This document shows, in pieces, positions 5,894 through 7,698 of a stretch of 64,000 nucleotides of DNA (position 1 is the stretch's first letter; each line of letters opens with the position of its first letter). The translations under genes and the position numbers were made by a program. The notes beneath the pieces were generated by a model. It searched no databases and had not been told where the DNA came from. It worked only from the letters and a program-made list of their open reading frames with translations. The stretch is taken from assembly GCA_048884785.1 (NCBI GenBank), contig JBHLQM010000006.1:16038-80037 (forward strand), read 5' to 3'. This stretch comes from Candidatus Thorarchaeota archaeon. Its GTDB lineage: Archaea; Asgardarchaeota; Thorarchaeia; Thorarchaeales; Thorarchaeaceae.

Positions 5894-6147
5894 CCGAATG
5901 TTAAGTTTCTAGATTAAAAGAAGGTCTATTATATTATTCAGGTATTATATCTCTGAGTTTGCGTATTTCATTGCCGCTCTTTCGGAAGATGGCATTTACA
6001 TAAAAGGCTGAAATTGGATATTTCAGAGACTAACCTCTACAAGCTAATAGCTTGAATTCCTTTATATTCTCACAGGAAAATAGATGCATACACCCCGGAA
6101 GACTGCTTTTCGAGAGTGAAAACAAGCAATCAGGATACACGCCTAAG

Positions 6148-6534
6148 ATGATAGATGAGGGCACGCTATTAATACTACGTTCGGCAAGTGGAGCTTTCTC
6201 TTGCAAAACGCCTCCAATCCCAAAGATGTGGAATCCAACAGATCGTCCTCATGTCGCTCATCTCGTAAGTCTTGATTTCTCTGTTTTCCACGTTTTTCTG
6301 TCAACTCCAATTCGAAGGCATGGCACGGCGATTTATGACTTAGAAGTGGCTGATTTGAGCCATCTCCCATCAAAATCAATTATCGAGATACGGCATGATA
6401 GCATTGAATTCAGTTACTATAGAAGAGATGAAAACACTTGGGTTAAGGTGGCCGAATCCAGCAGTCCATTTATGGTTGAGGTTTTCTCTCATGGCACAGC
6501 TCCCATCATTATAGACGCATCAGCAGAATATTAG
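6148..6534 (+). CDS. Hypothetical protein
   Basis: ORF (track start 6052; ATG at 6148 is more plausible); no recognisable motif. Confidence 0.45.
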   Translation: MIDEGTLLILRSASGAFSCKTPPIPKMWNPTDRPHVAHLVSLDFSVFHVFLSTPIRRHGTAIYDLEVADLSHLPSKSIIEIRHDSIEFSYYRRDENTWVKVAESSSPFMVEVFSHGTAPIIIDASAEY

Positions 6535-6547
6535 TCAATGAGAGTTT

Positions 6548-6665
6548 GAAGGTGCATGGAGCGTCTCAAAAAGAAAGGCTGTTTTAGTTGCTTGCTTGAG
6601 GAGGAGAGGATGTGTGCACGATTGTGCGATCAGGGTTTCAGGAATTTTAGACGCTCCTGCACTTC
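6548..6665 (-). ncRNA. Candidate stem-closed small RNA A (about 118 nt)
   Basis: Minus strand: TTTATAT box at 6695-6689, 24 nt upstream of GAAGTGCAGGAGCGTCT, which pairs with AGACGCTCCATGCACCTTC at the 3' end (17 bp, two single-nt bulges); C/U-rich loop. Confidence 0.55.
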
Positions 6666-6895
6666 TTTAGAGCATCAAGAGAGTATTGATATAAACTTTG
6701 TGATATTCTCAATACATAATCGTATTTATTGAATATTTCGCAATTTTTGTCGATATCATAGGGCGTTGCATCTTATCTTATACTCCAAATAGAGGGCATT
6801 CAACAAAAATAGTTGAAATTTTCGCAGCAATATATCTAGTAAACTTATTCTCACACGAGATTTTATTATATACAGAATTAGGTATAGTACAACCC

Positions 6896-6976
6896 AGAGA
6901 GGCTTGGGGGTCATTCTCTCTCGCCAAAAGATCATTCTCTCTCCTCCTTCCAGCGTTGGGCTCCCAGCCACTCTCT
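6896..6976 (+). ncRNA. Candidate stem-closed small RNA B (about 81 nt)
   Basis: TTATATA at 6866-6872, 24 nt upstream of AGAGAGGCTTGGGGGTC, which pairs with GGCTCCCAGCCACTCTCT; TCATTCTCTCTC occurs twice inside. Confidence 0.5.
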
Positions 6977-7072
6977 TTCTCATTCTTATAAAATGGCTGA
7001 TTGTACCCTGATCAAAATGCCACTGGCTAGGAACACATTATACTTATATAATATTATAACATAATATTATAT

Positions 7073-7161
7073 GTGCGGGGCTCACACCGCTACATATCTC
7101 TCTCAAACCATCTGTTTGCTCACAGCAACCTACCGCTGTTTTTACGTGGGCCCCATTGCAC
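7073..7161 (+). ncRNA. Candidate stem-closed small RNA C (about 89 nt)
   Basis: TTATATA at 7044-7050, 23 nt upstream of GTGCGGGGCTCAC, which pairs with GTGGGCCCC-ATT-GCAC; loop contains CTCTCTC. Confidence 0.5.
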
Positions 7162-7221
7162 CCCAATCTTCAGCAGTGAGTACTAAGTAAACATTAAAAG
7201 GAACACAAAGAACCGCAAGGC

Positions 7222-7698
7222 TTGGAGAGAGCAATCTTGTCAGTTGCAAAAAAAGCGGTTGATAGTACCCTTCGGAAACTAGCAATCTATACTTTGGAGA
7301 TCACAGCATCGATTATTCTGCTAATACTCATTTGTTTGCCCCTCGTATTTACCGTACCAATGTGGATTCAAAGAGTCGCATTTGGCACTGCGCCTGCAGA
7401 TTTGATAGTCAATCCTGTTTCCTGGTTCGGATATACTGGTGCCTTTTTGATAACTATTGGACTAGCAATCATCAGTCTGATCCTTGGATATCCATATATC
7501 ATGAGGCTATTACCCGGTGCCGAGAAGGCGGAGTTTGAAAAGCCAACGATTGATGAGGTTACAGAAGAAATGGAGGAAACCGAGGACATCGATGAAAACG
7601 AGATTCCTGAAGCCTATGATGAAGATGAAACAGCTGACGAGATTATTGATGAAACTGAAACAGAGTTTTCCGATGAAGATTCAGATATTGATGAATAG
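7222..7698 (+). CDS. Hypothetical membrane protein (2 TM) with acidic C-terminal tail
   Basis: Two hydrophobic segments followed by a D/E-rich tail. Confidence 0.65.
   Translation: MERAILSVAKKAVDSTLRKLAIYTLEITASIILLILICLPLVFTVPMWIQRVAFGTAPADLIVNPVSWFGYTGAFLITIGLAIISLILGYPYIMRLLPGAEKAEFEKPTIDEVTEEMEETEDIDENEIPEAYDEDETADEIIDETETEFSDEDSDIDE

Follow-up and report, generated by a model that had tools for sequence, protein, structure and literature searches.

Clustered sibling small RNAs (sRNAs) that present an anti-Shine-Dalgarno (anti-SD)-like pyrimidine motif are already known from bacteria. The cuckoo/CcsR sRNAs of Alphaproteobacteria are encoded as clustered siblings, and their loops carry CCUCCUCCC, a sequence that contains an anti-SD motif (PMC4615179; PMC8034643). 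RsaE/RoxS of Firmicutes are C-rich sRNAs that act in trans by masking ribosome-binding sites (RBSs) (PMC5419742). The same mechanism exists in archaea, where sRNA41 of Methanosarcina mazei is a C-/CU-rich sRNA that masks an RBS (PMC5867862).

Y RNAs and vault RNAs, which are subunits of particles formed with Ro60 or the major vault protein, are approximately 80-120 nt long and combine a long bulged stem that pairs their ends with a pyrimidine-rich interior and with paralogues that are clustered in the genome. In prokaryotes, the Ro60/Rsr gene usually adjoins the Y RNA gene. The Sm site, a ligand of archaeal SmAPs, has the form AU4-6G and is flanked by helices. Asgard archaea are the closest known relatives of eukaryotes, and our literature search found no paper on small RNAs of Asgard archaea, nor on the RNA families described below.

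Here we describe an intergenic gap in a 64,000-nt stretch of DNA from a Candidatus Thorarchaeota archaeon (the window; contig JBHLQM010000006.1 of assembly GCA_048884785.1) that encodes three independent sRNA genes, A, B, and C, of three related RNA families. The new elements of this system are its stem-closed layout, its three separately promoted genes, and its occurrence in an Asgard lineage. We estimate the probability that A, B, and C are real, conserved non-coding RNA genes to be approximately 0.93.

A, B, and C resemble the cuckoo/CcsR sRNAs in that siblings at one locus use variable stems to present the same pyrimidine motif, with the motif being highly conserved and the stems poorly conserved. 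The cuckoo/CcsR sRNAs differ in that they are bacterial and display the motif in the loops of two to four adjacent hairpins, whereas A, B, and C display it in a large loop that is closed by the termini. RsaE/RoxS and sRNA41 share with A, B, and C the exposure of C- or CU-rich single strands, which in those RNAs pair with G-rich ribosome-binding sites. They are not homologous to A, B, and C, however, and they use short hairpin-loop seeds with known targets, in contrast to the invariant strands of 25-34 nt found here. Rfam sequences and covariance models for cuckoo/CcsR and RsaE/RoxS do not match A, B, or C. The size, bulged end-pairing stem, pyrimidine-rich interior, and clustering of Y and vault RNAs all recur in A, B, and C, but the conserved part of A, B, and C is the loop sequence and not a protein-binding stem motif. 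Lastly, A and C resemble Sm-class RNAs in having a conserved U-rich tract, typically U3-6 followed by G, beside a helix. This likeness is one of sequence, and it is set against a lack of snRNA similarity and the lack of a clear U run in B.

Results

Organization of the locus

The gap extends from the stop codon of a 128-aa ORF at position 6534 to the next ORF, which begins at 7222 or 7236. An initial annotation, made from the nucleotide sequence, had placed within this gap one element on the minus strand (A) and two on the plus strand (B and C), each with CU-rich tracts and with a TTATAT box 23-24 nt upstream. We find all three elements and their tracts as described, with TTATAT boxes at 6694-6689 (minus strand), 6866-6871, and 7044-7049 that precede the 5' ends of A, B, and C by 23, 24, and 23 nt, respectively. 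The termini of each element pair as a GC-rich helix of 12-18 bp that has been kept by compensatory changes. The strand enclosed by this helix is predicted to be unpaired and is almost invariant, with CU-rich tracts that contain CCUCC or CUCUC motifs, while variable hairpins appear and vanish at fixed insertion points. Within the stems, G-U and A-C combinations occur at a ratio of 2:1, which favors the proposed strands. Coordinates are collected in Table 1.

Table 1. Features of the sRNA locus, in window coordinates.
Feature	Position	Strand	Basis or remark
Flanking gene, 128-aa protein	6148..6534	+	convergent with A throughout; conserved among the Thorarchaeota loci examined
sRNA gene A, ~120 nt	6546..6667	-	fold, covariance model, 31-sequence alignment
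Invariant single-stranded core of A (ACACAUCCUCU + CCUCCUCAAGC...)	6587..6615	-	identical across genera, predicted unpaired
TATA-like box of A	6689..6697	-	by eye, nearly every one of the 31 homologues has an A/T-rich box at -33..-26
Two 15-bp palindromes, TTGYGA-N3-TCRCAA	6698-6712 and 6729-6743		~31 bp apart; first abuts the TATA box of A
Promoter of B	6855..6872	+	conserved upstream block and TATA box 6866-6872
sRNA gene B, ~82 nt	6894..6979	+	covariance model, 37-sequence alignment
Invariant core of B (UCUCUCUCCUCCUUCC then AGCGUU)	6931..6957	+	alignments
TATA box of C	7044..7051	+	box at -36..-20 in 26/27 homologues, found independently of the stem search
sRNA gene C, ~89 nt	7073..7161	+	fold; homologues by stem search; alignments
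Flanking gene, membrane protein with acidic tail	7236..7698	+	own promoter ~7192-7201, GGAGAGAG SD

The source genome (G000) is a 3.6-Mb assembly that is 91% complete, and the window is part of its contig C6. Across genera, the order of genes is conserved as HAD hydrolase, 128-aa protein, A, B, C, membrane protein, and Mrp/NBP35. Neither the 128-aa protein nor the membrane protein matches a family in Pfam or NCBIfam, and an AF2 model of the 128-aa protein is beta-rich with low confidence (pLDDT 56). Comparison with homologues suggests that the starts of both flanking ORFs need adjustment: the listed start of the 128-aa ORF at 6052 is probably too far upstream, with homologues beginning at the Met at 6148, and the membrane protein likely starts at the TTG at 7236 rather than at 7222.

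Structure and conservation of element A

In element A, a terminal helix of approximately 17 bp with one bulge encloses a small hairpin, the CU-rich core, which is invariant, and a U-rich tract; a short tail follows at the 3' end. The pairing of its own ends that had been proposed for each element is clear in the fold of A, which has an energy of -30.5 kcal/mol (z = -3.9) that none of 200 shuffled sequences equaled. When fifteen homologues were aligned and the structure was specified by hand, the 14-bp terminal helix was 83% paired, compared with 37-57% when the pairing partners were slid, and six pairs had changed on both sides. Termini are paired and the core is unpaired in the fold of every A homologue. 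RNAalifold, when applied to plain MAFFT alignments, returned either no terminal stem or just a local alternative because the arms are misregistered in those alignments. We therefore turned to structures specified by hand and to alignments guided by the models.

The model-guided alignment of 31 A sequences begins with a conserved 5' arm that has one bulged U, followed by the single-stranded blocks CUCCCUCCUGAA and AUCCUGAU, an optional small hairpin, and the invariant core ACACAUCCUCU + CCUCCUCAAGCAACC. Next come AGCGAAC, the U-rich tract, and the 3' arm, followed by a CACCUUCAA tail. There are four fixed points at which hairpins of 20-45 nt have been inserted, and one of these lies between the halves of the core. 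We observed hairpins of 30-31 nt exactly at this point at L020:709-738 (genome G004) and in loci L023 and L031 (genomes G014 and G050). Since these hairpins are inserted exactly between its halves, the core comprises two separable modules. The borders of a tRNA-type BHB intron consist of a 3-nt bulge, a 4-bp helix, and a second 3-nt bulge. The 30-nt insertion of G004 was considered as such an intron and rejected, given that it has one 3-nt bulge only and that its borders misfit an exon junction; it is a plain hairpin.

Structure and conservation of element B

Element B has a terminal helix of 16 bp that encloses two CU tracts, and its 3' tail, beyond the helix, is CU-rich too. The fold of B (-22.9 kcal/mol, z = -0.8) is not significant by energy alone, and it is covariation, the strongest observed among the elements, that supports the pairing of its ends. 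Across eight sequences, 82.5% of the 16-bp helix is paired. In the model-guided alignment of 37 sequences it is 85.8% paired, compared with at most 61.5% when the partners are slid, and the alignment contains 124 double-change cells, compared with 40.5 ± 5.5 in shuffled alignments, none of which (0/500) reached the observed count. These counts lean towards the structure because the alignment was fitted to the model; the slid controls and an independent MAFFT alignment agree with them.

Structure and conservation of element C

Element C has a terminal helix of 13 bp with a 3-nt bulge, which encloses a conserved core (7087-7117) together with a U-rich tract. Its fold has an energy of -28.2 kcal/mol (z = -3.7), and none of 200 shuffled sequences folded as well. 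C diverges faster in sequence. Homologues were sought by a procedure that is blind to sequence, in which the best long-range contiguous stem was identified in the 420 nt downstream of B at each locus. A C-like element follows B in 27 of 31 loci, and every candidate combines a CU tract with a G-rich 5' arm and a 3' arm complementary to it; most also contain a U-rich tract. Arm sequences vary between genera while their complementarity is kept. Best-stem scores range from 18 to 34, compared with 21.2 ± 2.6 in block-shuffled controls, and 16 of 33 lie at or above the 95th percentile. The arms of 23 homologues were aligned too raggedly by MAFFT to yield a covariance model for C, and the support for C comes from the stem search, the shuffle control, and the promoter distance. 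The length of the CU tract varies from approximately 8 to approximately 30 nt between genera, and the core in the source genome reads CUCUCUC and lacks CCUCC.

The initial annotation had also drawn attention to arm sequence shared by A and C. This similarity is real in the source genome, but it does not extend to the families as a whole, as the arms of A and C in relatives differ in consensus. A U-rich tract precedes the 3' arm in 31 of 31 A homologues and in 20 of 27 C homologues and is weak in B.

Promoters and a possible operator

BRE/TATA-like boxes are conserved at -33 to -26 in nearly all homologues of A, B, and C; of the A homologues, 21 of 31 conform to a strict TATA pattern. To this we can add a whole-genome scan for the architecture itself, defined as a TATA-like box followed by a GC-rich stem of at least 8 bp that closes 40-190 nt containing a pyrimidine run of at least 8 nt. 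Starting from 895 boxes in the 3.6-Mb genome, the scan returned five sites, and three of the five are A, B, and C. The pattern seen in the three elements is thus beyond chance. An earlier and cruder scan that combined a CU tract with a stem returned mainly noise. All three RNA families are probably highly expressed.

The two palindromes listed in Table 1 are conserved in position and sequence in eight loci of other genera and also in upstream alignments, and they keep their place in at least eight genera. They resemble an operator at which a transcription factor would control A and perhaps the divergent gene B too, and their position beside the promoter of A suggests that expression may be regulated. 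The palindrome was also considered as a marker of a wider regulon and rejected: it shows no enrichment genome-wide, its 184 matches falling within the range of 91-186 obtained for control palindromes. Outside the window, at G000:C7:68990-69080, we observed three similar palindromes next to a TTTATAT box, within a stretch of approximately 525 nt that contains no gene; this site might be a second target of that regulator or a further unannotated RNA gene.

Distribution of the RNA families

Covariance models, which the initial annotation had proposed, were used to search Asgard genomes, and the terminal stems of A and B show compensatory changes. The model for A (R1) matches the source genome at G000:C6:22583-22704 and is found in 45 of the 87 genomes of the order, representing 13 of 17 genera, all within one family; genera without a match are g3, g11, and g2, and also g17 of the second family. 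A occurs once per genome, with the sole exception of one genome that has a second, weak match. The model for B (R2) matches the source genome at G000:C6:22931-23016 and is found in 57 of the 87 genomes, again all of one family and nearly always as a single copy, and in none of 124 sampled genomes of other Asgard families. B is present in genera that lack A (13 of 17 genomes in genus g3, 2 of 2 in g2, and 5 of 7 in g4). A BLAST comparison found the intergenic DNA to be conserved beyond the genus, in 17 of 40 relatives. Among the genomes searched, the three RNA families are confined to this Thorarchaeota family.

The loci of named Thorarchaeota metagenome assemblies (MAGs) provide a further view of this distribution. 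B is present in 39 of them and A in 20, always beyond mrp and in the same relative orientation. Named carriers of B include SMTZ1-45, OWC2, and a complete chromosome, and several of the carriers have A too. AB_25 is among the Candidatus Thorarchaeota MAGs that have a locus syntenic to the mrp neighborhood. Both A and B are absent from the five non-Thorarchaeota loci that were compared.

Two observations concern the assemblies and the gene content of relatives. The cluster often lies at contig ends in relatives G001, G002, G004, G005, and G007, with B being found on two contigs in G002, and assemblies seem to break within the CU-rich stretches of the cluster. In genus g2 (G022, L015:800-1500), the place of A is taken by an unrelated minus-strand ORF, while B, C, and both flanking genes are kept.

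Alternatives to stand-alone RNA genes

We considered whether A, B, and C could be cis elements that serve the 128-aa gene as terminator or 3' UTR and the membrane-protein gene as leader, or else relics of MITEs. The positions of two of the elements are compatible with this explanation, since A lies 14 nt past the stop codon of the convergent 128-aa gene and C lies approximately 75 nt upstream of the membrane-protein gene, and the inverted terminal arms superficially resemble MITE ends. Each element, however, is preceded at a constant distance by a conserved TATA box of its own, and the membrane-protein gene has a conserved promoter of its own, of the TTTAAAGG type, between C and its start codon. 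In addition, A has been lost from one genus in which its neighbor gene is retained. A MITE or other repeat family was rejected on the basis of copy number, with each element being present in a single copy in the source genome and once per genome in relatives, apart from rare second matches. We therefore consider cis elements and MITE relics to be very improbable.

A protein-coding origin is still harder to sustain. The pyrimidine-rich and purine-rich strands are nearly free of stop codons, such that stop-free frames span most of each element, and an ORF of 58 aa with an ATG start lies antisense to A. Nevertheless, element lengths are evenly distributed modulo 3, and internal gap runs are mostly not multiples of 3 (348 of 396 for A and 273 of 397 for B). 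No start codon is conserved, and the stems covary. We give the idea that A, B, and C are small protein-coding genes almost no credence.

Known classes of structured RNA were searched as well. ARAGORN finds no tRNA in the window. No Rfam 15 model reaches its gathering score there, and at E ≤ 10 the interval 6400-7350 yields only miRNA matches of chance level. C/D-box and H/ACA guide sRNAs were rejected on the basis that these scans found no snoRNA family, and a role as an rRNA guide was rejected on the basis that complementarity to the 16S and 23S rRNAs of two relatives does not exceed that of shuffled sequences. These results agree with the earlier statement that the elements show neither C/D boxes nor a tRNA fold. 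With conservation, covariation, conserved promoters, and synteny all in agreement, the proposal of an unannotated, separately promoted, paralogous sRNA family is supported.

The comparison with Y and vault RNAs made in the initial annotation stands as a description of architecture. The termini are paired with a single bulged nucleotide, the internal region is pyrimidine-rich, and several paralogues occupy one locus, and these features would also be expected if A, B, and C were true homologues that serve as subunits of Ro60 or major-vault-protein particles. Membership in either class finds no such agreement. The TROVE domain (PF05731) has no match in the 91%-complete source genome, while Deinococcus and Bacteroides controls were matched, and Rfam gives no match, including to the Y_RNA, bacterial Y-RNA-like, and Vault models. 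The neighbors of the cluster (a HAD hydrolase, two proteins without a family match, and Mrp) do not include an rsr-like gene. The vault repeat (PF01505) has no match in the source genome, a result to be read in light of the fact that control genomes were silent too. A does have a conserved single bulged U within a covarying stem, but its motif seems unrelated to the Ro site. We consider homology to Y or vault RNAs to be highly unlikely.

Discussion

Proposed pairing with ribosome-binding sites

Given that A, B, and C are most probably genuine RNA genes, we next consider what their exposed strands might do. Our tentative preference, which we hold with less than even confidence, is that they pair with RBSs or other purine tracts. 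In this mechanism, the terminal helix would be a stabilizing clamp that presents the CU tract, and the CU tract would act in trans by pairing with purine-rich sequences of the Shine-Dalgarno type in mRNAs, thereby masking their ribosome-binding sites. An SmAP bound to the U tract might assist the pairing, and the palindromes beside the promoter of A would provide for regulated expression.

The CU cores of A, B, and C are unpaired in every fold, and the anti-SD pentamer CCUCC lies within the unpaired cores of A and B, in keeping with the suggestion in the initial annotation that some of the tracts are anti-SD-like. A relative has a 16S rRNA that terminates in GGAUCACCUCCU, which gives the CCUCC-bearing cores of A and B the appearance of anti-SD sequences. 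Upstream of start codons, the source genome shows a 6-8-fold enrichment of GGAGG and GAGGT, while GAGAG, the complement of the C core, is enriched just 1.5-fold at start sites. sRNA41 and the cuckoo RNAs are precedents for RBS masking by C- or CU-rich sRNAs, and the two LSM/SmAP genes and the U-rich tract ahead of the 3' arm also fit this mechanism.

Searches for targets were less favorable to RBS masking. No extended antisense target of the A, B, or C cores in the genome exceeds the maxima obtained with shuffled cores. Targets of short seeds are inseparable from generic SD sites by the methods used, and RNAduplex comparisons with neighboring mRNAs were uninformative. The invariant stretch of 25-34 nt is longer than an SD-sized seed, and the fact that so long an invariant sequence has no target better than chance weakens the case for RBS masking. 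A 6-7-bp match to an SD sequence would, moreover, be the weaker one beside the 9 bp over which the 16S tail can match.

Possible binding of protein

It is possible, if doubtful, that A, B, and C are instead protein-binding RNAs that serve as the scaffold of a ribonucleoprotein (RNP) or as a protein sponge, with the CU and U tracts being recognition sites and the terminal stem being protective. The partner would be an RNA-binding protein, for example either of the two SmAP/Lsm rings, a protein of the KH type, or a factor whose usual ligand is the pyrimidine-rich 3' terminus of 16S rRNA. Such a role is nearly as likely as RBS pairing, given the lack of a long antisense target, the long invariance, a C core without CCUCC, and the lack of an rRNA complement. 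Several other observations fit protein binding. Hairpins are tolerated at fixed points only, the U-rich tract adjoins the 3' arm in every A homologue, and the genome contains two LSM/SmAP genes, at G000:C9:18117-18326 and G000:C19:355-561. The variation in the CU tract of C is also compatible with a sponge, in that a number of CU repeats that varies between genera would resemble CsrB-type sponge RNAs. On the other hand, a domain search of the genome found no RRM protein, and the adjacent 128-aa protein has no recognizable RNA-binding domain and is still present where A has been lost. The weak U tract in B also counts against this explanation.

One specific form of protein binding, in which the three RNAs are the cores of lineage-specific small RNPs and not plain antisense regulators, seems unlikely to us. 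They would be either SmAP-ring particles or mimics of the 16S 3' end that titrate a biogenesis or initiation factor. In the SmAP version, a ring would sit on the U-rich site beside the terminal helix, and the invariant pyrimidine strand would be presented by the particle. For mechanisms other than RBS or purine-tract pairing and a protein scaffold or sponge, we allow a slim chance at most.

Significance

The present analysis defines three new conserved RNA families by their gene boundaries, promoters, and conserved cores, with covariance-supported structures for A and B. The boundaries, the cores, and the possible operator are concrete probes for metatranscriptomes and for biochemistry with recombinant SmAPs. 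If the CU tracts mask RBSs, then A, B, and C would be global translational regulators in a lineage that initiates translation at Shine-Dalgarno sequences. If they are bound by protein, they would constitute a new archaeal RNP, and if the RNAs are indeed small-RNP cores, they would belong to an Asgard-specific small-RNP system that has no described archaeal counterpart.

The comparisons with rRNA brought to light some features of the rRNA genes themselves. In the source genome, the 16S gene (G000:C29:35826-37319) runs into the end of its contig, and no 23S gene is assembled. In two near-complete relatives, G014 and G042 (L059-L062), the 16S and 23S rRNA genes are unlinked. The 16S match in G014 spans 2.4 kb and the 16S gene of G042 has an insertion near its 3' end, and these extensions look like introns.
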